This document shows, in pieces, positions 8,201-57,769 of a stretch of DNA of 64,000 bases (its first letter is position 1; the number at the start of each line of letters is the position of its first letter). The notes under the pieces were generated by a model. It did not search any database. It was not told the DNA's origin and saw only the letters and a list, made by a program, of their open reading frames with translations. Origin of the DNA: an uncultured Lentimicrobiaceae bacterium (GTDB lineage: Bacteria > Bacteroidota > Bacteroidia > Bacteroidales > WCHB1-69); NCBI GenBank assembly GCA_964610025.1, contig CAZSTX010000003.1:11080-75079 (forward strand). The letters are read 5' to 3'. A program made the translations under genes and the position numbers.

Positions 8201-11200
8201 ATGAAAATAATAAAAAAATCATACTACATATTTTATATATTATTGTATATTGGTGTTATTTATTTTATTACCCCAATAAGTCAAGCCAATAAAATTCCTA
8301 TTACTTCCCATCCTTTCATCACTATTTTTGCTGATGATAGTGGAAAAAAAGTAATTCCCCAACCTGCTACCAACCCATTTCAACAAGCACCTTCCAGTCC
8401 ATTTTATTTAAAAAACCCAAAAAATTTCTCAACAAAAATTGATTACGACCCTATTAACAAAAATTATAATTTCCAACAAAAAATAGGTGAAACCAATTTT
8501 GGAAACCCTGGCAGCATGTCGCTTGACGAATACCTCGACTACGACATACAAAAAGCCATGCGAGAATATTGGCGTCAACGTTCAGGCATTGGCATCAACA
8601 GCGAAAGTCAAAAAGGTATCATACCGCAAATACGTGTTCCAAGTGAAGCTTTTGAACATATTTTCGGGAGCAATCTAATCGCTATCAAACCTTCTGGCTC
8701 TGTTGAGTTAAAATTTGGATTAATACACACTAGAAACGACAACACCTCTTTAGCCATAGATGCACGCCGACAAACACGTTTCGATTTCGACCAAAATATT
8801 CAGATAAATCTAAAAGCCAGTATAGGCGACAAGATACATTATAACATGAGTTATAGCACCGAAACTTCTTTTAATTTTGAAAACAAATTCAAACTCGGTT
8901 ACGAAGGAAAAGAAGACGAAATTATAAAATTATTAGAATTTGGAGATGTCAACTTACCATTAAACAGCACTTTAATAGAAGGTTCTCAAACTTTATTTGG
9001 CGTTAAAACTCAAATGCAATTCGGCAAAACCACCCTCACAACCGTTATTTCGCAACAAAAAGGCGATAAAACAAATATTGTTGTAGAAAACGGTGCCGAA
9101 ATGACCGAATTTGAATTCAAAGCCGATGATTACGAAGAAAATAGGCACTTTTTCCTTGCGCAATATTTCTACGACACTTACGGCGAAGCAATGGCAACAA
9201 TTCCATTAATTAATTCAAAAGTTACTATTACAAAAATCGAAGTGTGGCGAACAAATATCGGTTCTGCTGTACAAGAAAATAGAAATATTGTAGCACTTGC
9301 CGATTTAGGAGAAATAACTCCCTATAATCCCAATGTGAAACGCAATCCGGCTTATCGTCACAACTATCCCGACAGCAATGCTAACGATTTAATGCAAAGC
9401 ATGGATTATAGTAAATTAAGAAATATCAACACCGTTAGCACTTATTTAGAAAGCAAAGGAATGGTGGCTGGTTTAGATTACGAAAAAATAGAATCAGCTC
9501 GATTGTTAAGTCCTAGCGAATACACCTTTAATAGCAAACTTGGGTTTATCTCTTTGACCTCAAAGCTAAATGCCGATCAAGTATTGGCAGTTGCTTTTCA
9601 GTATACCATTATTGGCGACCCTAATGTGTATCAAGTAGGACAATTTTCTAACGAAGTTCAAACACCTGGTTGTGTAATTGTTAAACTCTTAAAAAGCACT
9701 GCTGTCAACACCAAAATACCTATGTGGAAACTAATGATGAAAAACGTTTATTCGCTAAATGCCTATCAAGTTTCGTCAGAAGAATTTCGTTTAAATATTC
9801 TTTACAAAGGAGAAGAAGGAGGAATAGGTTTAGGTTACTTCTCTGATGTAAGCGAAGAGTTAAAAGGAGTTTCGCTCATACGTATAATGGGATTAGACCG
9901 CCTAAACTATCAGCAAGCAGCTATTCCCGACGGCGTTTTCGACTTTATTGATGGTGCTGCTACTACTGGAGGAACGGTACAAGCCGAATACGGACGCATT
10001 TATTTTCCTACCGTCGAACCTTTCGGAAAAGATTTAAGAGAAGCCTTGAAAAACAGTCCCGGTGCAGGCAATAAATATGCTTTCGACTCACTCTATACAA
10101 CTACAAAAACGCTCGCTCAACAATATTCTGAAAAAAATAAATATTATTTAGAAGGGCGTTATAAATCCACTTATGGAAACGACATCTCGCTCGGTGTATG
10201 GAATATAGCACAAGGTTCTGTTACTGTTACTGCCGGAGGCGTTACCCTTGTCGAAGGAGTTGATTTCTCTGTTGATTACAATGCAGGAACCTTACGCATA
10301 CTAAATCAAAATTATTTAAGTTCTGGTACTCCCATCAATATTTCTGTCGAAAGCACTAATATTATGGGGACAACAAAAACTATGTTTGGAATGCACGTAG
10401 ACTATGCACTAAACAAAGATATTATAATAGGTGCCACCTTTTTAAACTTGAGAGAACGAACAGAAACATTTAAAGTAAATTTTGGCGAAGAACCTATCAA
10501 TAACAGTATATGGGGATTGAATTTTGCTATGCAAAAAGACGTTCGATTAATTACTAAATTACTGAATTATTTGCCCATTTACAAAACAAAACAAGAGTCG
10601 AGCATACAATTCGATGGCGAATTTGCGCATTTTATTCCAGGACATGCCCGTTCGATAGGAAGAGGCGACAAAGCACAATTATATATCGACGACTTTGAGG
10701 CGACAAAAACAACCATTAATTTAACAACACCCGGTTTTTGGTTTTTAGCCAGCACCCCTCAACATCAAACCAAAAAAGGTATGTTCCCCGAAGCTGCGTT
10801 AGGTAGTGGGTTGCAATATGGATTTAATAGAGCTAAAATAGCATGGTATATTATCGACCCTCTTTTTCATAATAATAGTATGTCGACACCTTCTAATATT
10901 ACTGCTGACGATAAATCAGAAATATATGCACGACGTATTTTAATAAAAGAAGTCTTCCCATATAAAAGCGTAGACGCTACCAGCCAAGACCCTTATCTGT
11001 CCGTGTTAAATTTGGCTTTTTATCCAAGCGAACGCGGTCCTTATAATTATGACGCATTAGGAATTGCCGGTATTTCAGCAGGATTAAACAACGATGGAAG
11101 TTTAAAAAATCCAGAAAGTCGTTGGGGAGGAATCATGAGAAAATTAGAAAGTACCGACTTTGAAACATCAAATATTGAGTATATCGAATTTTGGATGATG

Positions 11201-14200
11201 GACCCTTTTTATGAAAACCCCACACATAGCGGCGGTAATTTATATTTTAATTTAGGCGATATATCAGAAGACATATTACGCGATGGAAGAAAAAGTTTCG
11301 AACACGGACTGCCACCTAACGGAAGCGATGAAAATGTTGACTACACAATATGGGGAAGAGTACCTAATACGCAATCTATCGTTTCTGCTTTCGACAATTC
11401 AGTAGCTTCACGAAAATACCAAGATGTTGGTTATGACGGATTATACGACTCATTAGAACGTATTCACTTTAACGATTATTTAACTACAGTAAAAGGTATT
11501 GTAACCCAAACGGTATATCAAGAAATAGAAAACGACCCCTCTGCCGACAATTACCATTTTTTTAGAGGTTCAGACTATGACAAAGACGATATTAAAATAT
11601 TAGACAGATACAAACATTTTAACAATACCGAAGGTAATTCACCAACCGACATTGATAATCACGAAAAATATCCTACACAATCGTCTTCTTATCCCAACAT
11701 GGAAGATATCAACAACGACAACACATTAAGCGAAGATGAAAGATATTATCAATATGTTGTTGAATTGCATCCCGACAAAATGCAAATTGGAGAAAACTAC
11801 ATTGTTGATATCATGGAAAATCAGAATGTACGTTTAGAAAATGGAAAAGTAGTACATGTAAAATGGTATCAATTTAAAATCCCCATTCGTGACCCTAACG
11901 AAGTAATAGGTAGTATTAGCGATTTTTCTTCTATTCGTTTTATGCGTATGTTTTTAAAAGGATTTAAAGAAGACGTTATTTGCCGCTTTGGGACTTTAGA
12001 ATTGGTGAGAGGCGATTGGAGACAATATACTAACGACCTTAGGCAAAGCGGAGATTATCCTGTAGGAATAACTGGCGACAACACTAATTTTACTGTCTCT
12101 ACTTTAAGCCTTGAAGAAAACTACCATCGCGAACCCATTCCCTATCGCATGCCTGGCGGTTTGCAAAGAGAAGAAATCTATTCGCCTACCAATACCATTA
12201 AAGAACTCAATGAGCAAAGTATTACCATGAAAGTAACCAACTTAATTGATGGAGATGCCCGCGCAATTTATAAAAATACCAATTTTGATTTCAGACGTTT
12301 CGAAGTCTTGCGTTTCTATCTACATGCCGAAAAGGTATTTTTAGAAGACCACCTTATACAAGGAGACGTTACTTTCTTTATTCGTTTAGGCTCCGATGCC
12401 TCCGAAAACTATTACGAATATGAAGTGCCTTTAAAAATAACAGATTGGTACACAAAAGACACTACCTTAATATGGCCTTCGGCTAACAACATAGAAATTG
12501 AATTGCAAAAACTCATAGAAGCTAAACAAGAAAGAAACATTGCCAATAGAAGCGGTGCCGGTTATCCTATCAATGAACCTTATTTGGCATACGATGCAAA
12601 AAATATCATCCGAGTTGTCGGAGCGCCTAATATAGGAGATGTCAATGTTATTGTGATGGGAATTAGAAATCCAAAAAAACGAAGCCTTGACGACAACGAC
12701 GACATGTTACCAAAATCAGTAGAAATATGGGTAAATGAATTAAGATTAGGCAATTTTGAAGAAAAAGGAGGTTGGGCAGCAAGAGGTAATTTAAAAGTAA
12801 ACCTTGCCGATTTAGGCGATGTATCTTTAGCAGGAAGCATCCGCACAGCAGGTTTTGGTGCTCTCGAATCTAATACATATACTCGTTTACAAAAAACAAT
12901 AACAACGATAGATGTTGCCACTAATTTGCAATTAGGAAAATTTTTACCAGAAAAATGGAGCGTTAGCATCCCATTTCATTACGATTATTCAAAAATTACC
13001 GGCACACCCGAATACAATCCCCTCAATCCAGACGTAAAATTAAAAGAAGATTTAAAAACCTATACATCACAACACGATATAGATTCTATTAAAAAACAAG
13101 CATTAGAAATTGTACAACGTCAAAATTTCAGTTTAATGAATGTAAGTAAAAACAGAACAGGAAGTGGAAAAAACTATATTTGGGGTCTTGAAAATTTTGA
13201 TTTTTCTTATGCTTATACCGAAAAAAACATACAAGATATCAATTACGAATACGACGACTTATCGACACATACGGGAGAAGTAGGATACGCATATAGCTGG
13301 AGTCCAAAAAACTATAAGCCTTTTAATAAATCTCAAAAATTAAAATCTATCAAATGGCTGCAATTGCTATACGATTTCAACTTTTATCTTTTACCTAAGT
13401 CATTTTCGTTCTCTACTGATATTTATCGCTATTATCAAGAAAGTAAATTACGCAATAAAAGTCGTGGAGTTATCATAACCGAACCCATGTATGTAAAAGC
13501 TTTCGAATGGTCAAGAAATTATGCAATCGCATGGGATATAACACAATCTCTCAAATTTGATTATGCAGCAAAAGCCGAATCGCTCATTGATGAGCCACAA
13601 GGCAGAATAGACACAAAAGTAAAAAAAGATTCAATATGGTATAATATAGGAAAATTTGGAAGAATCAATAATTATTCTCAAAACTTTAATGCAAGTTACC
13701 AAATCCCTATTAATAAAATACCTATATTTAGTTTTATAACAAGTAATATTCGCTATGCCTCTACTTATTTTTGGAGTTTAGCTCCTCCTGCTATTGATTA
13801 TCTTGGCAACGATATAGAAAATTCTAACACCAAACAATTCAATATAAATGCTGGATTTGCAGCTCTTTACAACAAATCAAAATATTTAAGAAAAGTCAAT
13901 CAAGGTACTTTTGGTAGCAGTTTATACGAAAAACCCATTTTAAAATCTAAACAAGAAAAATGGAACAAAGAACAACAAAAATTACGAACCGGCAAAAATA
14001 TACTTCAAAATGACTCAATCGCTAAAGATGAAAACGAAGAACCTAAAATAAGTAAAAATTACGGAAAAGAAGTTTTAGATAACTTTCTACGTTTAATAAT
14101 GTTAGTAAAAAACATTTCATTTGCTTATACCGAAGGAAATGGCATTTCGCTCCCTGGCTATATGCTCAATCCAAATATATTAGGTTTATCTACTAATGCT

Positions 14201-21260: not shown

Positions 21261-22253
21261 TCAATCCCTGACACAACGAACAGAAAAACCATCTTCTTTA
21301 CTATAATAATTTCTGACTACATTACCATAATCATAATTCATATAACGATACCAAGCACTATCTGTATCAAACTCTGTTGCATTCCACCAACAACCATAAT
21401 AGCCAAGAGAGTAAAATTTACCATCGTTACCACGATAAGCACTTGGCAAAGCCGTAAAGCCGCTTTCATTAGTTGCACCGGTATTAGGGCTATTCCAATG
21501 CGTTATACCAACCTCTTTTAACTTACCTCCTGCAATAAGTTCACCTCCCAAATAATTAATTAATTGTGTCCATTCGGGATCAGTCGAAACATGCCAACCT
21601 GTAGGGCAGAGCTTATCGGTATTTACTGCATACCAATTATACAAACGTCCATAAGTTGCTACTTTATTTTGATCATTTTCATAATCACAATATGCTCCAG
21701 TTGTTAAACTTATCCATTTAATATCATCACTTATTTTTGGGATAGATATGCCGTCCTTGTATTTGGTAGTTTTTAGGTTTTCAGCCATCCATGTTTGTGT
21801 ACCAATAGTTACCGTTTTGTAAACGTTGCCATCAATATCGGTCATTGTTCCATAATTAATATTAGGATTAAACACAATATCTTCAAGTGTTACAAACGAG
21901 ATTTCATTGCCATATGCCGTTCCTTTACTATTAGTGGCATAAGCTCGTACATAATAAGTTGTATTTGTTTTTAAATCTGAAATGGTACTTGTAAAACTAC
22001 CTACTCCACTGCCATCTACGGTTTTATTATCGGCAATTGTAGGATTTGGGTTGGTACTCCAACACACTCCACGCTCTGTTACTGTTGCACCACCATCATT
22101 AGAAATATCACCTCCACTCATTGCGGTAGTTAAGGTTATTTCTGTTATTTTCTTCGTTGTTAATGTGGGTGTTTTATCACAATTTGTTAGCAAAAATACT
22201 AAGAGAAGGGAAAAAATTGTTGCTTGCAAGCATTTTCTAATTTTCTTTTTCAT
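21261..22253 (-). CDS. lipoprotein: one Fn3/Ig-like repeat + Fibrobacter succinogenes major paralogous (FISUMP) domain
   Basis: 330 aa. Lipobox LLTNC. Repeat GGxISxDGGxxxxxRGVCWSTxxxPTIxxxKT...NTTYYVRAYATNxxGTAYGN. FISUMP signature DGNVYKTVTIGTQTWMAENLK...YGRLYNW...CPTGWH.....EW..L...GGKLK...W......TNESGF.ALP...R..GFSVRCV. Confidence 0.85.
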   Translation of the reverse strand: MKKKIRKCLQATIFSLLLVFLLTNCDKTPTLTTKKITEITLTTAMSGGDISNDGGATVTERGVCWSTNPNPTIADNKTVDGSGVGSFTSTISDLKTNTTYYVRAYATNSKGTAYGNEISFVTLEDIVFNPNINYGTMTDIDGNVYKTVTIGTQTWMAENLKTTKYKDGISIPKISDDIKWISLTTGAYCDYENDQNKVATYGRLYNWYAVNTDKLCPTGWHVSTDPEWTQLINYLGGELIAGGKLKEVGITHWNSPNTGATNESGFTALPSAYRGNDGKFYSLGYYGCWWNATEFDTDSAWYRYMNYDYGNVVRNYYSKEDGFSVRCVRD

Positions 22254-22396
22254 TTTTTTTTATTTTAAAGTATATAAAAGTTCTTTTTATTTTTTTATAT
22301 TGCAAAGATAAAATTTTTGGACTTATCTTACTATCCAGAATTTATTAGGAACATTACACTCCTTTCGGTTTCGTTTAGAGTGCAGTAATACAAAAC

Positions 22397-23656
22397 TTAA
22401 TTTTTTACGCAACGAGCAGAAAGTCCCCAATGTGTATTTAAATCCTCTTTCTTTACATTGTTAACATGGTGGAACATGGTAATAGCAAATGCTATTTTAC
22501 AAGCACCACAGCCTGTCTTTGTCCACCAATAACCGCGGGATCTCATATAGATAAACTTATTCTCATCATGGTAGCCACCCGGAAGTGCTGTAAAACCGGT
22601 TTCGTTGGTTGCGCCAGCATTAGGATTATACCAATGCGTTGTGTCGGTTTCTTTTAACTTGCCCCCAGCAACGCTTAAGCCTCCCAAATAATCGATTAAT
22701 TTTTCCCATTCATCAAGAAAAGGCATATGCCAGCCTGTTGGACAAATCTTGTCGCTAATAGCATACCAATTATACAAGGCTCCATAGGTATCTTTTGCAT
22801 GTTGGCTATTGCTGTACCAGCAATAGCTTGGAGTAGTAATATTTGCCCACAAAGTGATTTCATTAGGAATTTCTGTTCCATCATTGTATTTCGTAGTTTT
22901 TAAGTTTTCAGCCATCCATGTTTGTGTGCCAATAGTTACCGTTTTATAAACATTGCCATCAATATCGATTACTTTATCTTTTTCTTCTTTAAGTGTTGTA
23001 AACGAGAGAACATTTCCATATCCTGTTCCTACATTATTAGTGGCATAGGCTCGTACATAATAAGTTGTATTGGCTGTTAAGTGTGTAGCATAACTTGTAA
23101 AAGCACCTACTCCACTACTATCTATTGTTTTATTATTAGCAATTGTAGGTTTTGAATGGGTACTCCAACACACTCCTTGTTCTATTATTGCTGCACCTCC
23201 ATCACTTGAAATATTACCACCACTTTTTGCTGTAGCATGAGTTATTACTGTTATTTTGTCTGTTGTTACTATAGGAATTTTATTATTTTCAATTATAAAC
23301 GAGATTTCATTACCATATGCCGTTCCTTTACTATTAGTAGCATATGAACGTAGATAATAAGTTGTATTGATAGTTAAACCCGTAATAACACTTGTAAAAC
23401 TACCTACTCCACTGCCATTTATGGTTTTCTTATCGGCAATTGTAGGATTTGGGTTGGTACTCCAACATACTCCTCTTTCTGTTATTACTGTACCACCATC
23501 ATTAGAAATATCGCCTCCACTCTTTGCGGTAGTTAAGGTTATTTCTGTTATTTTCTTCGTTGTTAATGTGGGTGTTTTATCACAATTTGTTAGCAAAAAT
23601 ACTGAGAAAAGAGAAAAAATTGTTACTTGCAAACATTTTCTAATTTTCTTTTTCAT
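22397..23656 (-). CDS. lipoprotein paralog: two Fn3/Ig-like repeats + FISUMP domain
   Basis: 419 aa. Same signal peptide, lipobox and first repeat as 21261-22253, including a 78-nt identical block. It has an extra internal repeat and a diverged FISUMP domain ending GLSARCVKN. Confidence 0.85.
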   Translation of the reverse strand: MKKKIRKCLQVTIFSLFSVFLLTNCDKTPTLTTKKITEITLTTAKSGGDISNDGGTVITERGVCWSTNPNPTIADKKTINGSGVGSFTSVITGLTINTTYYLRSYATNSKGTAYGNEISFIIENNKIPIVTTDKITVITHATAKSGGNISSDGGAAIIEQGVCWSTHSKPTIANNKTIDSSGVGAFTSYATHLTANTTYYVRAYATNNVGTGYGNVLSFTTLKEEKDKVIDIDGNVYKTVTIGTQTWMAENLKTTKYNDGTEIPNEITLWANITTPSYCWYSNSQHAKDTYGALYNWYAISDKICPTGWHMPFLDEWEKLIDYLGGLSVAGGKLKETDTTHWYNPNAGATNETGFTALPGGYHDENKFIYMRSRGYWWTKTGCGACKIAFAITMFHHVNNVKKEDLNTHWGLSARCVKN

Positions 23657-23811
23657 TTTTTTTATTTTAAAGTATATAAAAAATATTTTTTCTTTTTTTT
23701 TGCAAAATTAAACATTTTTTAAATATTACATTTTTTTTTATAACTGTTTTTTCTTAAAATCAACATTTTCTTTTAATTCTTTACAGCCATATACAATATT
23801 TTCGATATCCA

Positions 23812-29785: not shown

Positions 29786-30841
29786 ATGATTGAAAATACT
29801 AAAACAACTCCTCTCTCAGCATATGGAGAGTTTGGACTAATAGAGTTATTAACAAAAAATATTCAAATTAAAAATAAGAGTACACTATTAGGTGTTGGAG
29901 ACGATGCCGCTATCATAGACACTCAAGGACGTTGTCAAGTTGTTGCTAAAGATATGCTGATAGAAGGTATACATTTCGACATGAGTTACACCCCATTAAA
30001 ACATTTAGGATATAAATCAATTGCCAGCAATTTGTCAGACATTGCCGCTATGAATGCTACACCTGAACAAGTGCTCGTTGGGATAGCTGCTTCAAGTCGC
30101 TATACAGTAGAAGCTATTGAAGAACTATACGAAGGTATTTATTTGTGTTGCAATCGTTATGGTGTCGATTTAGTGGGTGGCGACACCTGTTCAAGTGTAA
30201 GTGGTTTATATATTAGTGTAACTGTAATGGGATATGGAGCCCCTGATCAAATTGTGAGACGTAACACAGCTAAAACAAATGATTTAATATGCGTTAGTGG
30301 AGATTTGGGAGCTGCTTATTTAGGATTACTTATCTTAGAACGTGAAAAAAAAGTATTTATGGAAAATCCAAACAGTCAACCTGATTTAGAAGATTTCGAT
30401 TATCTTATACAACGTCAATTAAAGCCAGAGCCACGTTTAGATATTGTTGATATTCTTAAGAAAAAAAACATTCTTCCTACTTCTATGATTGATATTTCAG
30501 ACGGTTTAGCATCTGAAATTTTACATATTTGCAAAAATTCTAAAAAAGGATGTGCACTTTTTGAAGACAAACTCCCTATCGACACCTTGACATATAATAC
30601 TGCTATGGATTTTAAACTCATACCCTCTACGATTGCTCTAAATGGAGGAGAAGATTATGAATTACTGTTTACTGTTGGGCAAGAGCATTACGAAACTATT
30701 CGGCAAATAGAAGCTATTTCTATTATTGGCTATATTACAGAAGAAAGCGAAGGGTGTAATTTTATTTCTAACGACAAAAAATCAATACCAATCAATGCAC
30801 AAGGTTGGGATGCCTACTTAAAAAAAACAACACCTAAATGA
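29786..30841 (+). CDS. thiL: thiamine-monophosphate kinase
   Basis: Start trimmed to MIENTKTTPLSAYGEFGLIELL (ATG 29786). Motifs GVGDDAAI and LVGGDT are present. A TACTTTTG box lies about 20 nt upstream. Confidence 0.92.
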   Translation: MIENTKTTPLSAYGEFGLIELLTKNIQIKNKSTLLGVGDDAAIIDTQGRCQVVAKDMLIEGIHFDMSYTPLKHLGYKSIASNLSDIAAMNATPEQVLVGIAASSRYTVEAIEELYEGIYLCCNRYGVDLVGGDTCSSVSGLYISVTVMGYGAPDQIVRRNTAKTNDLICVSGDLGAAYLGLLILEREKKVFMENPNSQPDLEDFDYLIQRQLKPEPRLDIVDILKKKNILPTSMIDISDGLASEILHICKNSKKGCALFEDKLPIDTLTYNTAMDFKLIPSTIALNGGEDYELLFTVGQEHYETIRQIEAISIIGYITEESEGCNFISNDKKSIPINAQGWDAYLKKTTPK

Positions 30842-32271
30842 AAAAAATCATTGGATTATTTATTTGTTTCTGTTTTCAATTAAGTTTTTCACAAACTCTC
30901 TCTGAAAAATTAACAGTAGCGATTCAACATTTTTTTTCGGATAAAGACTTGTCTGTTTCCACATTGGGAATATGCGTAATAGATGCCAATTCTAATAAAA
31001 TTGTCTTTGATTATAATGCCACAAAAAACTTTGTGCCTGCATCGCTGCAAAAAATTCCTATTACGGCTATTGCCTTGCAAAAATTAAGTAGTAATTATAA
31101 ATTTAAGACATTTATTTTAAATTCTGGAAGTATTGAAAATGGTGTTTTAAATGGCAATATTTATATTATTGGTGGTGGCGACCCAAGTTTAGGCAGCACT
31201 TATTTTAGAGCAACACATCCTGATACTGTATTAAAAAAATGGCACGAAGCACTACTAAAAAAAGGTATACATACTATTAAAGGAAATATTTATATAGACC
31301 CCTCTTTTTTCGACGCACATACATTAAACGATACGTGGATGTGGGGCGACATCGGCAATTATTACGGTGCTGGTGTTAGTGGATTAAATTGGCAAGAAAA
31401 CATGTTTCAAATCACTGTAAGTCCTGCTGATAGTATTAATAAAAAAGCTATAATTACTAATATATCCCCTACTCTTCCAAAAAGTTATATAATCAACAAT
31501 CATATTATAACCAGCCGAAAAGAAATAGAAAGCTATATGATGGGATATGGCGATTTTTATACGAAACGCCGAGATATAGAAGGATATATTGCTATCAATA
31601 AATCATCTATGACAGCGAAAATTGCTATGCCCTGTCCTGAATATGTATGTGCATCGCATTTTAAAGAGTTTTTAGAAAACAAAGAAATTCAAGTCAAAGG
31701 AAACATCGCTTATATAGACGTTGACACATTAGATATAAAACTTGATACTATTTACATACATTATTCGCCACCTTTACTTTCGATTATCAATCATATTAAC
31801 AAAACCAGCAATAATCTTTATGCAGAATCTGTATTCAAACTATTAGGAAATGGGTCGTATATAAGAGCAAGTAGTACAATAAAAGCAGGATTAAAACATA
31901 TTAACATTCCTACAGAAAACATTAATATAGCTGATGGAAGTGGCTTATCGTCAGCTAATTTAATTTCTCCTCTTGCTATTTGCAATGTGCTTTCTTTTGT
32001 TTATTCTACTTCTTTTTACAAACAATATCTACTTTCTTTATCAGAAGCAGGCGTGTCGGGAACAATGAGAAATATTATAAAAAACAAACCAAAAGGCAGT
32101 AATATTTATGCTAAATCAGGCACTATGAGTGGGGTAAAAGGATATGCAGGTTATGCCATTAATGCCAATGGCAACACTTATTGTTTTACTATTATAGCCA
32201 ATAACTTTACTTGTAAATCGGCAATGGTGAGAGATAAATTAGAAAATATTCTATTATTACTAATAGAATAA
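30838..32271 (+). CDS. dacB: D-alanyl-D-alanine carboxypeptidase/endopeptidase (PBP4, peptidase S13)
   Basis: 477 aa with a signal peptide, SxxK (PASLQK), DGSGLS and KSG (YAKSGTMSG) motifs. ATGA overlap with thiL. Confidence 0.88.
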   Translation: MKKIIGLFICFCFQLSFSQTLSEKLTVAIQHFFSDKDLSVSTLGICVIDANSNKIVFDYNATKNFVPASLQKIPITAIALQKLSSNYKFKTFILNSGSIENGVLNGNIYIIGGGDPSLGSTYFRATHPDTVLKKWHEALLKKGIHTIKGNIYIDPSFFDAHTLNDTWMWGDIGNYYGAGVSGLNWQENMFQITVSPADSINKKAIITNISPTLPKSYIINNHIITSRKEIESYMMGYGDFYTKRRDIEGYIAINKSSMTAKIAMPCPEYVCASHFKEFLENKEIQVKGNIAYIDVDTLDIKLDTIYIHYSPPLLSIINHINKTSNNLYAESVFKLLGNGSYIRASSTIKAGLKHINIPTENINIADGSGLSSANLISPLAICNVLSFVYSTSFYKQYLLSLSEAGVSGTMRNIIKNKPKGSNIYAKSGTMSGVKGYAGYAINANGNTYCFTIIANNFTCKSAMVRDKLENILLLLIE

Positions 32272-32285
32272 TATTCTTAAAATAA
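32256..32285. repeat. left copy of a perfect 30-bp direct repeat (ATTACTAATAGAATAATATTCTTAAAATAA)
   Basis: Covers the last codons and stop of dacB. An identical copy lies at 36828-36857. It contains the palindrome AGAATA-A-TATTCT. Confidence 0.95.
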
Positions 32286-32329
32286 GGCTTAATAGACAAA
32301 AATAATGGTAAAAATCTCGTAAAAGTTTG

Positions 32330-32524
32330 CTATTGTTGCATTGACCTATCGGTAAGGTATCCCGAATAATTGGGTTCTATAATATCTACATTATCGCAGA
32401 GATTTCCATTAAATCCACTGCCGATTTTGCTGGCAATTCCTTGTCTTGCCACAGCACACTGCTTTAACGCTCTACTCTTTTGTAAAGGTTTTGTGTTTCC
32501 CGTTTGTGTGCTGTAGTTTTTCAT
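32330..32524 (-). pseudogene. cassette 3: Rhs cassette stub (leader + IASKIGSGF, then unrelated 27 aa and stop)
   Basis: MKNYSTQTGNTKPLQKSRALKQCAVARQGIASKIGSGFNGNLCDNVDIIEPNYSGYLTDRSMQQ. The first 38 aa are homologous to cassette 2. No Rhs core or toxin follows. Confidence 0.55.
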
Positions 32525-32608
32525 TTTGCAAATGTATACTTTTTTTTGGTTGTTTTTTGTGTTTTTTAAATTTTTTGTGTTTTTATTTTGATTTTTTGTT
32601 TTTACGGC
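32411..32608 (-). repeat. cassette junction module, copy 3 (A-rich spacer + promoter + ATG + leader)
   Basis: About 198 nt alignable by eye with 33874-34068. It contains the 30-nt core shared by all three copies at 32518-32547. Confidence 0.85.
32529..32536 (-). promoter_or_regulatory. -7 promoter box TACATTTG (minus strand), 4 nt before the cassette-3 ATG
   Basis: Plus strand CAAATGTA, a perfect TAnnTTTG match. Confidence 0.45.
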
Positions 32609-32834
32609 GATTTGCAAAGAACTTTATCAAACTGTCGCCAACTCCGCTCCATGTCATCCACGCTGCAAATCCCAAAGAACAAATAATTGATAAAGGTAAA
32701 TATTGACCTATTTCTTCCCAACTGGAAGGTCCCATTTTAAAAATATCAAGAAATTTTGACGAAAGAGTAATAAAAACCAGAATGCAAAAAAAACTACAAG
32801 TGAAAAGAATGGCTTTATTTTTTCTTGTTTTCAT
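32583..32834 (-). CDS. small two-TM membrane protein, candidate immunity protein of cassette 2
   Basis: Start taken at MKTRKNKAILFTCSFFCILVFITL (83 aa). A second hydrophobic helix is LPLSIICSLGFAAWMTW. It overlaps the 3' end of the cassette-2 ORF by 20 nt, and its basic tail runs into junction module 3. Confidence 0.5.
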   Translation of the reverse strand: MKTRKNKAILFTCSFFCILVFITLSSKFLDIFKMGPSSWEEIGQYLPLSIICSLGFAAWMTWSGVGDSLIKFFANRRKNKKSK

Positions 32835-33987
32835 TATTATTTTGTTTTTTATACCCTGCTCTTGTTGTTTGATACACTGTCCAAGCATTTATCGCCTTGT
32901 CAATCCCTTTTGCAACTGTAGACACGACCCCGCTGGCGGCTTTACCCACTCCTCCTGCAACCACACCCACTCCTGAAATTATCCTATTTGCAGTGCTGGC
33001 TTCATTTCTATAAATATCTTCACCTGCAATGGCTGTATATACGCCGTTAGGAACACCCACAAGCGGATTAAGTAATACTAAACCTTGTGCAATGGGTGCT
33101 GCGGCATCTATGGCTTTTTTTTCATCAAATCCAACGAACTCACCAGCACTTTTCAATCCGTATTCTACTTTCTTTTCCCATGTTTCTGCATTTTTAAATT
33201 CATTTTTATAATGGTCTAACATAGGCGTTGTTTCATTCTGTTTTGGCGGTGGTGGTGTTTTAGATTCTGTTTTAGTCTCTGTATTAGGAATAGCGTAAGG
33301 TACTTTTATGGCTATATTTGATTTAGTATTTGAAGGTGCATATTGTCCATTTACAGGAGGCTCACCGTCTATTGCTATTGTTTCCATCCCCGTCGGATCT
33401 ACATATCGCAAGGGGTTATTCTTCGTAAACGCATAAGGGCTTATAGAAGGATACTTCTCAAACATCGGGTCCCGACCTCTGAACACTATATCTTCATCAC
33501 TATAATACCTTGCCTCAAAGTAATACATTCCTGATTCTTCGTCTTTTTCTTTTGCTGAGAATAAATACCTCGGTATGGTATCTAACTTCCAATCTGCTCT
33601 ATATTCGCTTATTATCGTACCCCAAGGATTGTAAAGAACTGCCTGCGAGATAGAGCCGTTAATGTCGGTAATAAGTTGGGTTGAGGAAAGATGGTTAGCG
33701 TAATAGAAATACAAACCATTCTCATATTTGCAGGAATCTCCGCCCAAATAGCGTAACTGGTCAAAAGCGTACACAACGTTATCTATGGTGTCGTTGGTAG
33801 TTTCTCCTAACTCTTTTATCATCACATCATACGCAAGCGTGTTGCCAACTGTACCACCACTTATGGAATCGGCAAAACCGCTGCCTATTTTGCTGGCAAT
33901 CCCTTGCCTCGCCACAGCACACTTTTCTACCGCTTTACTCTTTTGTAAAGGTTTTGTGTTTCCCGTGTGTGTGCTGTAGTTTTTCAT
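32815..33987 (-). CDS. cassette 2: orphan Rhs repeat-associated core + C-terminal region with PT-TG-like / glycine-rich segment
   Basis: 390 aa from MKNYSTHTG (ATG 33985-33987). The Rhs core is GLYFYYANHLSSTQLITDINGS..AVLYNPWGTIISEY...EESGMYYFEARYYS...RGRDPMFEKYP...NNPLRYVDPTG. The C-terminal 190 aa include NPLVGVPNGVYTAIAGEDIYRNEASTANRIISGVGVVAGGVGKAASG. The ORF-track version (to 34074, GTG start) adds a K/N-rich, probably untranslated stretch. Confidence 0.7.
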   Translation of the reverse strand: MKNYSTHTGNTKPLQKSKAVEKCAVARQGIASKIGSGFADSISGGTVGNTLAYDVMIKELGETTNDTIDNVVYAFDQLRYLGGDSCKYENGLYFYYANHLSSTQLITDINGSISQAVLYNPWGTIISEYRADWKLDTIPRYLFSAKEKDEESGMYYFEARYYSDEDIVFRGRDPMFEKYPSISPYAFTKNNPLRYVDPTGMETIAIDGEPPVNGQYAPSNTKSNIAIKVPYAIPNTETKTESKTPPPPKQNETTPMLDHYKNEFKNAETWEKKVEYGLKSAGEFVGFDEKKAIDAAAPIAQGLVLLNPLVGVPNGVYTAIAGEDIYRNEASTANRIISGVGVVAGGVGKAASGVVSTVAKGIDKAINAWTVYQTTRAGYKKQNNNENKKK

Positions 33988-34068
33988 TTTGCAAATGTAT
34001 ACTTTTTTTTCTAATTGTTTTTTTGTGTATTTATTAAGTTTTGTGTGTTTATTTTTTGTTTTTACGGC
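33874..34068 (-). repeat. cassette junction module, copy 2
   Basis: Homologous to 32411-32608. The 30-nt core lies at 33981-34010. Confidence 0.85.
33992..33999 (-). promoter_or_regulatory. -7 promoter box TACATTTG, 4 nt before the cassette-2 ATG
   Basis: Plus strand CAAATGTA, same context as the other two copies. Confidence 0.45.
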
Positions 34069-34070
34069 TT

Positions 34071-34553
34071 TCACATATTACCACGAATATTCACATCATC
34101 GCTATCCTTTACATCTCTAAATTCCTTATTGCTATAATCAGCAAATTCTTTCATCGAAAAAATTTTATAAATATTCTCTTTGTTTTTATTCCTCTTAAAG
34201 GTACAAACAAAATCAAAAGTTTTTAAAACAACAAAATTAAAATTAAACTGAATGGGTATTTGTATTGTCAAATTACGTTTAGCTATCCCATACCCCTGTG
34301 AAATGACTATTGTTCCTCGTTCGTCCTTATAAAATTTTCTTGTATCCTGTAAGCGTATAAATAAGGTGTCTTTATCTTTATAGATGCTATCAATACAATC
34401 AGTGATTTGTAAACATGGAAAAGACAACTCCTTTTTATTGATATTTTTGAACATAAGTGTTAATTCAGAACTTTGTGCATAAGAATCACATAAACATATC
34501 ATTAGAAATGTGCTAATAATAAACGACTTACCGACACTGACATTAATTTTCAT
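34071..34553 (-). CDS. secreted 160-aa protein, candidate immunity protein of cassette 1
   Basis: Signal peptide MKINVSVGKSFIISTFLMICLCDSYAQS. It overlaps the stop of the upstream toxin ORF by 11 nt (translational coupling). No family was recognised. Confidence 0.5.
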   Translation of the reverse strand: MKINVSVGKSFIISTFLMICLCDSYAQSSELTLMFKNINKKELSFPCLQITDCIDSIYKDKDTLFIRLQDTRKFYKDERGTIVISQGYGIAKRNLTIQIPIQFNFNFVVLKTFDFVCTFKRNKNKENIYKIFSMKEFADYSNKEFRDVKDSDDVNIRGNM

Positions 34554-36491
34554 GGTCTAACCCATTTCTAGGGCGAAGCCCTTTATTTTGTAATGCTGCA
34601 TTTTGGTATTGTACTTTGTCTATTTGAGGAGAATTTTCATTTACCGTTTTTGATGATGAATAAAAATTCAGAAATTCATCAAGCAATTCGTGCATGAATA
34701 AAGAACTTGCACTCTTTCCTGTGCTTGTGGAGACTTGGTCATCTTTTCCTATTGTCGTTGTTGCAGACATCGTCTCATTTCTTGCTGCTGCATCATTTAT
34801 GCCAATCATAGTATATGACATATTCTCTGCTTGACCAGCAAAACCGCCACCATTCCAAATTACTGTACCTCCATTATCATTGTATTCCTTAAATCCCTCA
34901 TTATTATAACCAACAAATTGAGGGTCTTTAAAGCTAAACTTATTAGAATTTTCATTAACTTTTACTTTTGCCACATCATCAATGTTAATTGCATTTTGTA
35001 TTCCTCTAAGTAAAGTTCTTTGATGCGAATTAGCAGATGTCATTGCCTTATTAAACCTTCCTTGATTAATTTTCAACTCTCTTTGAGAATTAAATCTAAA
35101 CATTTTATTCGAACCAAATTGGTCTTTAAAATAGCTCTTCATATATTTTTTAGAACTTCTATCATGTGCAAAAACTCTTCTTCCATCAGGGTCAACCAAT
35201 TTTACCGGATTATTTAGGCAGTAAACATACGGCGAGGTCGCTGGATATTCTTCAAACAGCGGGTCTCTACTAATAAACGTTGGCGGAGCATAGTACCTTG
35301 CGGAGTAATAGTACATGCTGTTCCCTCGTCTAATTCTTTGGCATTGAATAAGTATCTTGGTATGGTATCTAACTTCCAATCTGCTCTATATTCGCTTATT
35401 ATCGTACCCCAAGGAGTATATAAAACAGCTTGTTTTACATTAGCGTTTATGTCTGTTATCAGTTGGGTGGAACTCAAATGATTTCCGTGATAGAAATACA
35501 GACCTTCTTCATATTTGCAGGAATCTCCCTGCAAATGCGTTATTTGAGTAAAGTTGCAACTAATATTTTCAATGGTGTCGTTAGTTACTTCGCCTAATTC
35601 CTTTTGCATTAATTCAAGGGCTTCAAGCATTTTCAGGCTGTCTGTACCGGCAGTTATTGAGGGTTCGTATCCGCTGCCTATTTTGCTGGCAATGCGAGCA
35701 TCTTCGGCGTAGTAATGTTTAGTATAGTTTCCGTCTTGGTTAATATTAATGTAACCGTTGGGGTAAAGCATCAGCTTTTCTATTTCCAGCACATTATCTC
35801 CCAATGCATTGGTTCTGGATAAGGCATTGTTTAACGTAACCTTATACATTCGTTGTCCTGCATCATCGTAACTGTAATACCCGTATTTTTCCCCATTTTC
35901 ACTGTAGGCTTTCATCTGGTCAAAGGCATTGTAGAGATAGTATTCTGTCTTGTCGGGTGCTGTGCGTTTACGCATACTGCCGTTTATGCCGTATTCAAAA
36001 GCAATATCGCCATTGTTGGCGCTTACGGGAGCAAAGCTATTGGAAGCCGGATTATTTACGTTATAAGCATAACTGTTGCTTAGCTGCGTAGAAATATTTG
36101 TCTGCGGGTCGGTGAAACTTGTATTATTAGTGTTTATCCGTCCGTAGTTACCGTAAGACATCTTCACAGTGTAGAGGCTGCCGTTGTTTCCGCTTGCACT
36201 ATCTAACTGGTCTGCTGCATCGTAGGCAAACGTTTCATTGGATGAGAAATCATTTACTTGTGAATTGCTTGTATTTATCCCTGTGATATTTCCTTTGGGG
36301 TCGTAGGTATAGGATACATGCATGTAATTTATAGGAACAGTTGTATTATTCACAATATTTTGTGTGCTAAGCCGCAGGTTTTGCGGGTTATAACTATAGG
36401 TTGTCGTCAGGTTATTGCCGTATTTTACAAGCGTTTTAGCCCCGAACTTGTTGTATTTTACATCATTTACCTTATTGAATGCTTTCGCCAT
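34543..36491 (-). pseudogene. cassette 1: 5'-truncated Rhs/YD-repeat protein with core and about 212-aa C-terminal toxin domain, split by a 1-nt frameshift
   Basis: ORF 35214-36491 carries YD repeats (YSYNPQNLRL, YTYDPKGNITG, FAYDAADQL, YSYDDAGQRMYK) and the core up to DTIPRYLFNAKELDE. ORF 34543-35379 continues with GNSMYYYSARYYAPPTFISRDPLFEEYP...NNPVKLVDPDG plus a C-terminal domain. The frames join with +1 nt near 35320-35326. Confidence 0.8.
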
Positions 36492-36512
36492 ACCTTCGTT
36501 TGTTGTTTTTTA

Positions 36513-36542
36513 TTTTCATTTTGCAAATGTATACTTTTTTTT
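36513..36542 (-). repeat. cassette junction module, copy 1 (30-nt core only; includes -7 box at 36524-36531)
   Basis: TTTTCATTTTGCAAATGTATACTTTTTTTT is identical to 33981-34010 and 32518-32547. Here the ATG opens only a 15-codon uORF overlapping the MAKAF start at 36491. Confidence 0.85.
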
Positions 36543-36827
36543 CTAATGCAGAATCTAAATTTTAATAAAAATAAAATATTAATATTTACAGTATAAACTT
36601 ACGATAGTCTATATTTTGTCTTAAATTGTAGTTAATAGTAACTTTTGTTGAATAATCTTGTTGTCGATAAATGAAGTGAGCTATTGGGAAACAGCATTTT
36701 CAAAAAAACATGTACTTTTGTCCATTGTAGATTTATATCGTAAGAAAATACAAAAGTACAAAAAATAATGGGGTTAGATAGAAAAATCACCTCCTTATTT
36801 TAAAATTATTTTTATCGTACAATAGTG

Positions 36828-36857
36828 ATTACTAATAGAATAATATTCTTAAAATAA
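36828..36857. repeat. right copy of the perfect 30-bp direct repeat
   Basis: Identical to 32256-32285. It lies 26 nt from the yitT stop codon. Confidence 0.95.
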
Positions 36858-36883: not shown

Positions 36884-37816
36884 CTATTCAATTGCTTTTG
36901 CTCTCAGCGATGCAAATCCTTCTCCAAAAATTTCACTTGCATCAATAATAGACATAAAAGCATTTAAATCTATTTCATGGATAATATGAATAAGTTGTGG
37001 TATTTGTTTTTTAGACAAAGTAGTAAAAATGATTTTTTTTTCAGCACCACTATACATTCCCTCTCCGTTAAAAAAAGTTCCTCCTCTATTCAAATCTTTG
37101 AGTATACGCTGTTTAATTTCTTCATGTTTATCAGAAACAATAATAACTGCTTTTCCTGAGCTAAATCCTAAAATAGTTTTATCAACGACAACGCCTGTAA
37201 CATAAATAATTAACCATGAATACAATGGAATAGTCCAATCTTCAAATGCTATTAATGCACCGAGTACAATAAAAGAATCGATAAATATCAACAAAGTTCC
37301 TAATGGTATATGTTTAAAATATTTATTTGCTATCATTGCAATAATATCAGTTCCTCCAGATGTAGCTCTAGTTTTAAAGATAAGTCCTAATCCAAATCCT
37401 AACAAAACTCCTCCGCATAAGGCAATAATAAAATTAGCAGCAGGATCAGGAATAGATGCATCGACAGAGGAAGGGATTAATGGAGCATAGCCATAAATTT
37501 TTTCAAGTATTGTTATAAATGCCGACAAAGAGAATACTCCAATTAAAGTTTTCCATCCAAACTTTGGTCCAAGCCACAAAGTTCCAATAATAAGTAACGG
37601 AATGTCTAACGTTATTCCTGATAGTCCAATTTTAAAATCAAAAAGATGATGCAAAATGATAGCTATTCCATAAACGCCTCCTGGTGCAAGTTTCAAGGGA
37701 GATATAAATATCACTAAACTTACTGCCATCAAGAAAGTTCCTAATAATATCAAGCCATAAGTTTTGATTAACTCTTTAGCATTTAATTTTTCTTTTTTTA
37801 TAGCAAAAGATTTCAT
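36884..37816 (-). CDS. YitT family membrane protein (DUF2179 C-terminal domain)
   Basis: 310 aa with five or six TMs, GGVYGIAIILHH and SGGTDIIAMI motifs, and a soluble C-terminal domain. Confidence 0.8.
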   Translation of the reverse strand: MKSFAIKKEKLNAKELIKTYGLILLGTFLMAVSLVIFISPLKLAPGGVYGIAIILHHLFDFKIGLSGITLDIPLLIIGTLWLGPKFGWKTLIGVFSLSAFITILEKIYGYAPLIPSSVDASIPDPAANFIIALCGGVLLGFGLGLIFKTRATSGGTDIIAMIANKYFKHIPLGTLLIFIDSFIVLGALIAFEDWTIPLYSWLIIYVTGVVVDKTILGFSSGKAVIIVSDKHEEIKQRILKDLNRGGTFFNGEGMYSGAEKKIIFTTLSKKQIPQLIHIIHEIDLNAFMSIIDASEIFGEGFASLRAKAIE

Positions 37817-55852: not shown

Positions 55853-56983
55853 TTATGTATTATAAACAACGTTAATTGGATGTACTTCACTCGAATTAAG
55901 CACTGCCTGCCTACTTGCATTTAGCCTTTGTTGGCTACTGGGCATAGTGTCAATCAGTTCTATAAATTCGTAATCAGGTTTAGCAATAAAAAGGTCTCCT
56001 TTAACTGTTTCAAGTTTCTCCTTTGTGGCTTTAATAGCATGTTCAGATTGGTCAATTCCAATCCATTTTCTATTATTAGTTTGGGCTGATTTTAATGTTG
56101 TTCCCGAACCGCAAAAACAATCTAAAACTATACTTTCATTATTTGAGGAAGTTTTGATAATTAAATCTAATAAGTCTGGATTTTTTTCAGTTGGATAAGT
56201 CGGATATTGAGGGTCTTTATACTCCCAAATATCTTGTACTCGTTTACCCTCTCGCTCGTCTGCAAATATAATTTTTCTGGGATTTCCATTCGATGACCAT
56301 TCAATTAACCCGTCTTTATCCCATTGTTCTAATGTTTCTACATCAACTCTCCAATGCCTTCCTTTTGGAGGTAATATTCCTTTAAATGGTTGACTCGATT
56401 TTCCGTTTTCCGTTTCGCCTGGCGCATGAATTGGGACTGTAGTATATCTTCTGCTTAGTTTATCTTTTTTAGGAAATAATTTTTCAAAATCTTTTTCGGT
56501 ATATTTTTCTCTCGGCTCATTCCAAATAGGGGTTGTGGTTTTTGAATAGAATAAAATTAAATCCTTAATGTTTCCATAACCAATTCTATCAAAGTTTTTT
56601 GGATTACATTTAATTCTTGTAATATCGTTCTTGAAATTTTCTATCCCAAAAACTTCGTCCATCATAACTTTTACGTAATGACCAATTTTATAGTCAATAT
56701 GCAAATATATTGAACCTTGTTCTGACAATAATTCTTTTAATAAAACTAATCGTTCTCTCAAAAACTCAATAAAATCTTTTCCTTTTAATGTATCTGAATA
56801 AGCAACATTTCCATTTTTAGAATTACTTATTGTTGTTGCCCTACCGTCAGTAATTGTAAAATTACCACCAGTTGCAAAAGGTGGGTCAATATATACTAAA
56901 TCAATTTTGCCTTTTAAGTTTTTTTTGTTTAAAAGGTGCTTGAGACCGGCAATATTATCTCCATGTATTAAAATACTTTTCAT
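55853..56983 (-). CDS. beta-class N6-adenine (or N4-cytosine) DNA methyltransferase, Type II R-M
   Basis: 376 aa. Motif IV (VYIDPPFATG) lies near the N-terminus, and YPTEKNPDLLDLII...VLDCFCGSGTT (motif I) near the C-terminus. This is the PF01555-like order. DPPF favours m6A. Confidence 0.88.
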   Translation of the reverse strand: MKSILIHGDNIAGLKHLLNKKNLKGKIDLVYIDPPFATGGNFTITDGRATTISNSKNGNVAYSDTLKGKDFIEFLRERLVLLKELLSEQGSIYLHIDYKIGHYVKVMMDEVFGIENFKNDITRIKCNPKNFDRIGYGNIKDLILFYSKTTTPIWNEPREKYTEKDFEKLFPKKDKLSRRYTTVPIHAPGETENGKSSQPFKGILPPKGRHWRVDVETLEQWDKDGLIEWSSNGNPRKIIFADEREGKRVQDIWEYKDPQYPTYPTEKNPDLLDLIIKTSSNNESIVLDCFCGSGTTLKSAQTNNRKWIGIDQSEHAIKATKEKLETVKGDLFIAKPDYEFIELIDTMPSSQQRLNASRQAVLNSSEVHPINVVYNT

Positions 56984-56986
56984 GGG

Positions 56987-57769
56987 TTAAATTTGGTATA
57001 AAAATTCACGTAAAACCAATGCACTCATAATATTATAATTCTTGTAGGTTTCGGTGATGGACTTGTACATCTTATTTTTACCTTTAATATACAATACTCC
57101 GTCTAAAATGGCAATTTTAATTGCATTTACTTTCTTAGCTTCAACAGTACTGATTGCATCATTAAACTGGGCATTTTGATGTCCCCCAAAATCAGTTAAG
57201 AATTTTGCTTCACCTATTACATATTTCCCATTGAAACGACCAACAAAATCAAGTCCTTTATTGTGATTGTAGCCCAATTCATTTTTTGCAAAATCCATCA
57301 TGGACTTATCACTCCCGTCTAAAATGGCATCCTTTTTATTTGAAAGAAATTTATTTAATTCAACTGGAGTTATTCCTAAAGATTTTTTACGTAACCATTC
57401 TCGAAACATTGGTCCGATTTGACGATTTGTTTCTTTAGGCTCACTACACCTTTCATATAATTTATCAAGTCCGATTTCGTATATTCTACCGCATATTCTA
57501 TTTATAGTTCGAGGATTGCGGTCAATAGAAGAACTGTCTCTTTTTAAATATGCAATGTAACTATCTTTAATTGGGAATAAGTCAAGTTTTAAAAGTTCTC
57601 TAATTAGCAATCCATTATTTTTGCGTTTAAATGCTTTTTCTACTTCAGTCCAAACTTTTTCATCAATTTCTCTTATCCCTTCTGGAATTGTCGGATATAC
57701 TTGAAACAAGTCATCAAGATATGACCTTTGATTTGCGTATTCTATGCTTAAATTAGTCCATTTACTCAT
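56987..57769 (-). CDS. putative Type II restriction endonuclease (PD-(D/E)xK-like)
   Basis: 260 aa. Its stop is 3 nt before the methyltransferase start. Candidate catalytic core LDFVGRFNGKYVIGEAKF (D...E-x-K). Specificity unknown. Confidence 0.55.
   Translation of the reverse strand: MSKWTNLSIEYANQRSYLDDLFQVYPTIPEGIREIDEKVWTEVEKAFKRKNNGLLIRELLKLDLFPIKDSYIAYLKRDSSSIDRNPRTINRICGRIYEIGLDKLYERCSEPKETNRQIGPMFREWLRKKSLGITPVELNKFLSNKKDAILDGSDKSMMDFAKNELGYNHNKGLDFVGRFNGKYVIGEAKFLTDFGGHQNAQFNDAISTVEAKKVNAIKIAILDGVLYIKGKNKMYKSITETYKNYNIMSALVLREFLYQI

Follow-up and report, generated by a model that had tools for sequence, protein, structure and literature searches.

Organisation of the dacB-yitT interval

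The window analysed here is a 64,000-nucleotide (nt) stretch of DNA from an uncultured Lentimicrobiaceae bacterium (Bacteroidales; contig CAZSTX010000003.1 of assembly GCA_964610025.1), and the element in question is a small islet of Rhs toxin/immunity genes that lies between the convergent genes dacB and yitT. The islet is bounded by two perfect copies of a 30-base-pair (bp) direct repeat, and the interval between them measures 4,542 bp. All credible open reading frames (ORFs) in this interval are on the minus strand, where they make up three co-oriented orphan Rhs-CT/immunity cassettes, of which one is intact (B), one is frameshifted (A) and one is truncated (C). The features of the locus are given below in order of position, with protein lengths in amino acids (aa).

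30838-32271, plus strand: dacB-type D-Ala-D-Ala carboxypeptidase gene (Peptidase_S13, Pfam PF02113, E=1.1e-78), whose 3' end is the duplicated target
32256-32285, no strand: direct repeat copy 1, attL-like, made up of 16 nt from the dacB 3' end, with the TAA stop, and 14 nt downstream
32295-32313, plus strand: left subterminal inverted-repeat arm GACAAAAATAATGGTAAAA, 19 nt, 9 nt inside copy 1
32330-32524, minus strand: cassette C remnant, 64 codons, recognised by its repeat family and by alignment to cassette B, with toxin tip and immunity gene missing
32583-32888, minus strand: candidate immunity gene B (ORF; weak DUF7670 match), encoding a small membrane protein of 83-101 aa depending on the start and overlapping the end of toxin B
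32815-33987, minus strand: cassette B, an intact short orphan Rhs gene of 390 aa from the ATG at 33987 (TIGR03696, E=1.6e-14; core end ..VDPTGME)
34071-34553, minus strand: candidate immunity gene A, 160 aa (from position and ORF), with an N-terminal signal/lipoprotein-like peptide and overlapping the end of toxin A
34543-35379, minus strand: cassette A part 2, the Rhs-associated core end ..VDPDGRR and a 212-aa C-terminal toxin domain (TIGR03696 Rhs_assc_core, E=5.2e-11)
35214-36491, minus strand: cassette A part 1, an N-terminally truncated Rhs (YD-repeat) core of 425 aa (RHS_repeat)
36513-36542, minus strand: promoter-like block AAAAAAAAGTATACATTTGCAAAATGAAAA, 30 nt, at the head of cassette A, with invariant copies also at 33981-34010 and 32518-32547
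36543-36827, minus strand: AT-rich non-coding spacer from cassette A to copy 2 (G+C 0.23 over 36492-36827)
36798-36816, minus strand: right subterminal inverted-repeat arm GATAAAAATAATTTTAAAA, 19 nt, 11 nt inside copy 2
36828-36857, no strand: direct repeat copy 2, attR-like, ending 26 nt from the yitT stop
36884-37816, minus strand: yitT-family membrane protein gene, the right flank (Pfam PF02588 YitT_membrane, E=2.6e-57, and DUF2179)

The core of cassette A aligns at 70% identity, over 91% of its length, with short Rhs proteins of 700 aa. Its second part is out of frame with the first, and comparison of the frames with those of cassette B places a 1-nt frameshift near 35320, which is also present in an independent contig (L023); the whole cassette amounts to ~690 aa. 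The 212-aa tip, a predicted toxin, has no Pfam or PDB sequence match. Its candidate immunity protein, which is also found on the Logan contigs L023 and L024, matched no family in profile scans. The predicted toxin domain at the C-terminus of cassette B (190 aa, glycine-rich) has a weak PT-TG match and no PDB sequence match, is common to just 6 short Bacteroidales proteins, and is unrelated to that of cassette A. Cassette C opens with a stretch that matches the start of cassette B at 91% identity, after which the sequence diverges and ends 44 nt from copy 1 of the repeat. The frameshift in A and the truncation of C show decay.

Each of the three cassettes is headed by an exact copy of the 30-nt promoter-like block, which occurs nowhere else in the window and gave 0 matches in a metagenome scan. 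The Bacteroidota -7 promoter consensus is TAnnTTTG, and the TAcaTTTG contained in the block fits it, so that the block may act as a promoter. In cassettes B and C the ATG of the block is the gene start. At cassette A the same ATG opens an ORF of only 15 codons (36519-36491), and the Rhs frame has its own ATG 28 nt further on, in another frame.

No recombinase, transposase, excisionase-like or transfer gene was found in the islet when the ORFs of both strands were scanned with Pfam; nor did the islet yield a tRNA, an Rfam RNA match at threshold or a match to the PADLOC defence-system models. The other window ORFs scanned are those of housekeeping genes (SprA, MutS2, RuvAC, rpoBC, GldB and others), with neither a site-specific recombinase nor a further Rhs match among them, and it is yitT, and no main rhs gene, that stands directly upstream of the array. 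A reading of the locus made earlier from the letters of the window (the sequence-only reading) had described the 4.54 kb as entirely minus-strand, as filled with Rhs-core/toxin fragments and small ORFs, and as free of integrase, transposase and tRNA. All three points hold: the plus-strand ORFs of at least 60 aa have no Pfam match, the TIGR03696 and RHS_repeat matches identify the Rhs fragments, and the Pfam scans of both strands and the tRNA search were negative. We identify the cargo as an orphan Rhs array with high confidence.

The same reading described the islet as richer in G+C than its flanks, which is true of the Rhs-core segments (0.40-0.42, with third-position G+C (GC3) of 0.42 vs 0.17-0.28 in host genes), but not of the toxin tips and immunity ORFs (0.28-0.33) or the upstream spacer (0.23). 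Taken whole, the islet has a G+C of 0.356, vs 0.319 in the remainder of the window, where 3.6% of intervals of its size reach the islet value. The Rhs cores are foreign-looking in composition, and this is counted toward the integration reading set out below. Because Rhs genes classically combine a G+C-rich core with AT-rich tips, islet G+C gives only weak independent support for recent import.

The duplicated dacB 3' end at the islet borders

An exact-match search confirmed perfect copies of the 30-mer ATTACTAATAGAATAATATTCTTAAAATAA, read on the plus strand, at 32256-32285 and 36828-36857, with no third copy in the window. When up to 3 mismatches are allowed there are still just two sites in the 64 kb, where none would be expected by chance, and a window search with the 23-nt core of the 30-mer returns the identical two. 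The edges of the repeat are abrupt on both sides, one copy being set between T and GG and the other between G and CA. Copy 1 covers four codons of dacB, one base of a fifth and the stop, rather than the last five codons and stop first supposed; the 14 nt beyond the stop, and the 26 nt between copy 2 and the yitT stop, are as originally described. The coding end of dacB, ..ATAGAATAA (LIE*), is kept in relatives, and the first 16 nt of the 30-mer are therefore native dacB. Because relatives conserve this end, copy 2 is a duplicated gene end, as had been proposed, and does not represent an independent repeat family. A longer degenerate dacB remnant ahead of copy 2 was ruled out, as there are stop codons in the dacB frame there. 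Outside the window, the 30-mer is absent from 20 related loci and has 0 matches in JGI metagenome contigs and 0 in viral contigs, and the whole islet has no match in plasmid and phage collections (blastn).

Just inside the repeats lie the two subterminal inverted-repeat arms, which agree at 16/19 positions (Markov-shuffle P ~0.002 for the terminal 60 nt, and ~0.0003 once symmetric position is required). The arm has one other match in the window, and this only at 2 mismatches. A perfect 10-bp hairpin, TATTCTATTA/TAATAGAATA, is formed in dacB and straddles the left edge of copy 1 (z=-2.5). The 30-mer also holds the palindrome AGAATA-A-TATTCT, with a 1-nt spacer, whose presence had been pointed out before; it folds no better than shuffled sequence, and the role of recombinase core suggested for it is speculation. 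The short motif AATAAT-N(2-5)-TAAAA is frequent in the window (18 sites), and no weight was therefore placed on it.

Both junctions are found, 100% identical to the window, in Logan contigs of three runs (SRR8925753, SRR8925748 and SRR8925720), which are per-sample assemblies separate from the source assembly. These contigs reach 189 nt (left) and 175 nt (right) into the islet, with L003-L005 spanning copy 2 at 100% identity. Because the assemblies of three samples reproduce both junctions, the repeat is no artefact of the source assembly. The contigs (L001-L005, three samples) have their ends at the identical two positions, 32474 and 36653, an agreement which repeats internal to the window explain only in part; other contigs of the same samples end 30 nt into known repeats. 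The stops imply that the cassette C/B 5' region, and likewise the spacer that lies upstream of cassette A, has further exact copies outside the window, elsewhere in the genome or the community and possibly at a main rhs locus. Roughly 145-160 nt next to each 30-mer would then be unique sequence. The contigs of the three samples cross both 30-mers unbranched, and from how contigs of a k=31 graph terminate we infer that any alternative junction was too rare to split the graph. A hypothetical empty site would have the junction dacB-30mer-CAACATATTTT, and a hypothetical circle the junction ..CAATAGTG-30mer-GGCTTAATAG.

An all-against-all 30-mer census of the window returned three other kinds of exact repeat, accounted for by paralogous genes at ~22-23.6 kb and by repeats internal to the islet cassettes. 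Two adjoining genes with Fib_succ_major domains (21261-22253 and 22397-23656) have long exact stretches in common (22027-22260 and 23430-23663), which indicates recent tandem duplication or gene conversion. Further along the window, at 55853-57769, a Tsp45I-type type II restriction enzyme gene and an N6/N4 DNA methylase gene stand between housekeeping genes; flanking direct repeats were not found for this restriction-modification pair (55.8-57.8 kb).

Related loci and comparable systems

The named dacB homologues come from Bacteroidales metagenome-assembled genomes (MAGs). The best dacB match in a search of 5.8 billion proteins is 75% identical (aa), and a scan of GTDB species with dacB returned a single relative, 'Bacteroidetes bacterium ADurb.Bin234', at 57%. 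When the exact dacB and yitT proteins were looked up, the contigs retrieved were all of the same strain, and every one of them had the islet edges. The order SufD-ThiL-dacB is kept in the five relatives examined (dacB 75, 62, 61, 57% and others), in none of which does yitT neighbour dacB. No empty dacB-yitT junction with one repeat copy was found among the dacB relatives (75% aa or less), and gene order in the clade is fluid in any case. In four of the five, a conserved gene of ~240 aa, with a signal peptide and the C-terminal end ..GLQLNF, follows 1-23 nt after dacB; the fifth (L013) has a different gene. The four copies, all convergent to dacB, are at these positions.

L007:4619-5326
L011:11436-12155
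L006:6478-7206
L009:2209-2916

This gene is missing from the window (tblastn, no match). A remnant of it beside copy 1 was rejected, the tblastn search being blank and the candidate frame having stops. At L025:7512-12854, compared with L011 and L013, an orphan Rhs array follows two acyl-CoA ligase genes where the relatives have SufD-ThiL-dacB, and orphan arrays therefore coincide with synteny breaks in the clade.

The Rhs family itself is widespread in related material. With the cassette A core as query, 195 proteins were retrieved, mostly singletons of 400-740 aa from digester/fermentation metagenomes, and these short-Rhs homologues bear many tips (Peptidase_M23, Toxin-JAB1, Peptidase_M91, NlpC/P60, CHAP and others). 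A search of the viral collection with the Rhs protein gave a sole match, 27% identical, on a 49-kb predicted viral contig (IMGVR_UViG_2894185313_000007: 24194-41543). At one locus (L017), a short Rhs gene and a small ORF lie behind a gene for a 4,519-aa SpvB/TcdB_toxin_midN/FG-GAP/RHS protein and the latter's own small ORF, which is main-plus-orphan organisation of the textbook kind (concept in PMC3967940).

Two other assemblies carry detached arrays of the same short-Rhs family, with 70-88% nt identity to the islet in core parts: five orphan pairs between a thioesterase gene and recJ in L014 (GCA_040436515.1), and three to four between acyl-CoA ligase genes and rlmN in L025 (GCA_017994425.1). 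Like the islet, these are co-oriented pairs with TAnnTTTG-type heads, set between housekeeping genes, with no main rhs gene and no recombinase. They differ from it in having no duplicated gene end and in containing a 34-nt palindromic element, CCACCCCTCTAAATCTCCCCAAATGGGGAGACTT, that is absent from the window. The element is identical in the arrays of the two Bacteroidales MAG assemblies, lies between cassettes and at array borders, with its best-conserved copies at the borders, and in L025 stands just ahead of very short orphans starting at MMFEKYPSISPY. Its function could be that of a cassette junction, a recombination site or a regulatory site. Its sites are as follows.

L014:3111-3144, 7045-7069, 8653-8677 and 11543-11576
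L015:2267-2291
L025:8240-8264, 8419-8452 and 12447-12480

The array end is 99.8% identical over 2,974 nt in L014:9283-12256 and L015:1-2974, beyond which come recJ in L014 and the type II dehydroquinase/ftsZ region in L015; this reflects either relocation of the array or a chimeric contig joined at a repeat. Detached, recombinase-free orphan arrays are normal in the clade, and the 30-bp bracket is special to the window.

Poole et al. reportedly described, in 2011, orphan rhs-CT/rhsI modules of the rhs loci of Enterobacteriaceae. The islet cassettes share with these modules their truncated Rhs cores, G+C-rich relative to the tips, the differing tips after DPxG(L), the small downstream gene, the head-to-tail arrangement and the decay. 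They differ in having yitT upstream in place of a main rhs gene of full length, in possessing an ATG and a promoter-like block, where enterobacterial orphans are usually without initiation signals, and in lying between two copies of a 30-bp gene end. In the relatives, the main genes are also of another kind, namely giant SpvB/TcdB-Rhs fusions, as in L017 (4,519 aa vs 390 aa and ~690 aa for the cassettes). The concept of the orphan rhs-CT/rhsI module is found in Koskiniemi et al. 2014 (PMC3967940).

A second comparison, with acquired interbacterial defence clusters, had been suggested in the sequence-only reading. Ross et al. are said to have reported recombinase-associated systems for acquired interbacterial defence (rAID systems) of Bacteroidales in 2019. 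By definition these systems combine a tyrosine recombinase with arrays of short orphan genes for immunity and with motifs conserved between the genes (PMC12247911). The islet resembles them in its Bacteroidales host, in its co-oriented short cassettes tied to interbacterial toxins, perhaps in the conserved block at each cassette head, and in a benefit that is probably immunity. It has no tyrosine recombinase, however, and keeps its toxin genes, one of them intact; its Rhs genes, of 390 to ~690 codons, alternate with small ORFs, vs 100-300 codons in rAID arrays. Identity with rAID was rejected on the missing recombinase and the retained toxin genes, so that the likeness is a loose one and the orphan rhs-CT/rhsI modules are the better fit.

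For the islet as a whole, the nearest described counterpart is the cis-mobilisable element (CIME), an integrase-less remnant of a decayed integrative and conjugative or mobilisable element (ICE/IME) whose genes for integration and transfer are gone and which has retained attL and attR, for example the ICESt1-related elements at the fda 3' end in Streptococcus thermophilus (PMC5704250 and references 79 and 80 in it). The likeness lies in integrase-less DNA with a direct repeat at either border, one copy overlapping a housekeeping gene at its 3' end, and in the lack of integration, excision or transfer genes. The differences are that no related ICE/IME with the islet's 30-mer was found in the metagenome, viral, plasmid and phage collections, that the phylum and the cargo are other, and that the att function of the islet repeats is putative. 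The islet fits the description of a CIME and may hence be called CIME-like.

Origin of the islet and what it may mean

We hold, about as strongly as we doubt it, that this is a decayed, integrase-less integrative islet with attL/attR-like repeats. A segment with co-oriented orphan Rhs cassettes would have entered the chromosome by a Campbell-type crossover, most likely mediated by a tyrosine recombinase, within the 30-bp identity that overlaps the dacB 3' end. The dacB end would have been regenerated and the 30-bp core left at both borders as attL and attR, and loss of the recombination and transfer genes would then have left an integrase-less, CIME-like fossil. Conservative site-specific integration is favoured because a sharp, perfect 30-bp repeat lies on the dacB 3' end and is accompanied by symmetric subterminal inverted repeats. 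The cargo would be a polymorphic-toxin reserve, in which each cassette starts inside the Rhs core and carries a distinct tip after DPxG and a small cognate immunity gene. Its likely present role would be the expression of immunity proteins and of one intact short toxin, together with a stock of toxin tips able to recombine into a full-length rhs gene elsewhere.

Several observations weigh against integration of this kind. The postulated attB (dacB-30mer-yitT) was not observed, and in the closest relatives dacB is not beside yitT. In the collections searched, the 30-mer turned up in no other context and on no related element, and nothing in the cargo points to an integrase, excisionase or transfer gene. 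The contigs of the three samples gave no excision signal at either junction. The palindrome within the 30-mer has no special stability. The L014 and L025 arrays are without duplicated gene ends, so that arrays of this sort need no such mechanism. The islet interpretation of the sequence-only reading thus stands in its duplicated gene end, its content and its lack of an integrase, and falls short in the empty site, which was not found, and in the loose likeness to rAID systems.

An unlikely course of events, though one to be taken seriously, is insertion without any dedicated recombinase. Foreign DNA sharing ~30 bp with the host would have entered by a RecA-dependent or illegitimate single crossover, with the repeats as its scar, or else a template switch during repair or replication would have duplicated the 30 bp. 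Such an event would leave no recombinase behind, as is seen, and it is consistent with a 30-mer and islet ends found nowhere else in the collections searched, with related orphan arrays at many loci without att-like borders, and with 30 bp being about the minimum for homologous recombination. Yet a sharp 30-bp identity on a gene 3' end together with symmetric inverted repeats is an integrase-type signature, and a chance identity of 30 bp between incoming DNA and a host gene end is improbable.

Somewhat less probable is an islet that still moves, carried in trans, or in cis by accretion, by a recombinase whose gene lies elsewhere, as a functional analogue of rAID arrays or of CIMEs that an incoming ICE mobilises. 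The att-like copies are perfectly identical despite the decay of the cargo, the subterminal inverted repeats could be protein-binding sites, and the near-identical array end beside different housekeeping genes in L014 and L015 hints at relocation, although that difference could come from a chimeric assembly at a repeat. Against mobility, the contigs of three samples are unbranched at the junctions, with no visible empty site or circle junction (an argument from the k=31 graph), no recombinase is among the window ORFs scanned, and the JGI metagenome and viral collections do not contain the 30-mer.

To a similarly low degree we credit the view that the array is an old resident and the 30-mer pair a local duplication, for example a terminator piece copied in one of the Rhs-mediated rearrangements characteristic of such 'rearrangement hot spots'. 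The coincidence of orphan arrays with synteny breaks in the clade would suit it, as would the position of both 30-mer copies in AT-rich, hairpin-forming 3' regions of convergent genes; the contig breaks at 32474 and 36653 likewise point to further array copies outside the window that could drive recombination. Recombination between Rhs copies does not place a second dacB end beyond the array, however, and homologous exchange of this kind is disfavoured because no duplication of the flanking gene end arises from it. The repeat edges are also exact and non-decaying, and 16 of the 30 nt are dacB coding sequence.

Other explanations fare worse. A transposon or insertion sequence was rejected, there being no transposase and the 30-bp duplication being too long; transposase-type target duplications are far shorter than 30 bp. 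We put very little faith in an integrative mobile element exploiting Xer (IMEX) with duplicated dif sites: absence of an integrase, direct repeats of about dif length and an internal palindrome would fit, but GC skew has the same sign throughout the 64 kb, so that no replication terminus lies here and the repeats are probably not dif sites (the ground on which this reading was rejected), while half of the repeat is coding and the 11-6-11 layout fits poorly. An assembly artefact or generic multi-copy repeat is just as implausible: a repeat of 30 nt has the length k-1 of k=31 assemblers, yet three separate assemblies contain both junctions together with 175 nt or more of islet on the inner side, and the 30-mer, whose multiplicity had been named in advance as one point on which the islet could fail, occurs only twice in 64 kb and is missing from 20 related loci.

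The islet is of a familiar genomic kind and implies no new mechanism and no new system. A wider proposal, that the orphan Rhs arrays of uncultured Bacteroidales are discrete integrase-less cassettes which insert at housekeeping-gene 3' ends through a 30-bp att core accompanied by symmetric subterminal inverted repeats, and are mobilised in trans by a recombinase with its gene elsewhere, seems to us doubtful; if true, they would be a toxin-carrying counterpart of rAID arrays. If the integration reading of the dacB-yitT islet itself is true, it would be a clean case, outside Firmicutes and Proteobacteria, of a toxin/immunity reserve stranded after site-specific insertion, and would show one way in which orphan Rhs arrays detach from the main rhs gene. 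The orphan Rhs cassettes of this lineage carry their own promoter-like heads, which bears on whether orphan immunity genes and short orphan toxins come to expression in the absence of recombination into a main gene.

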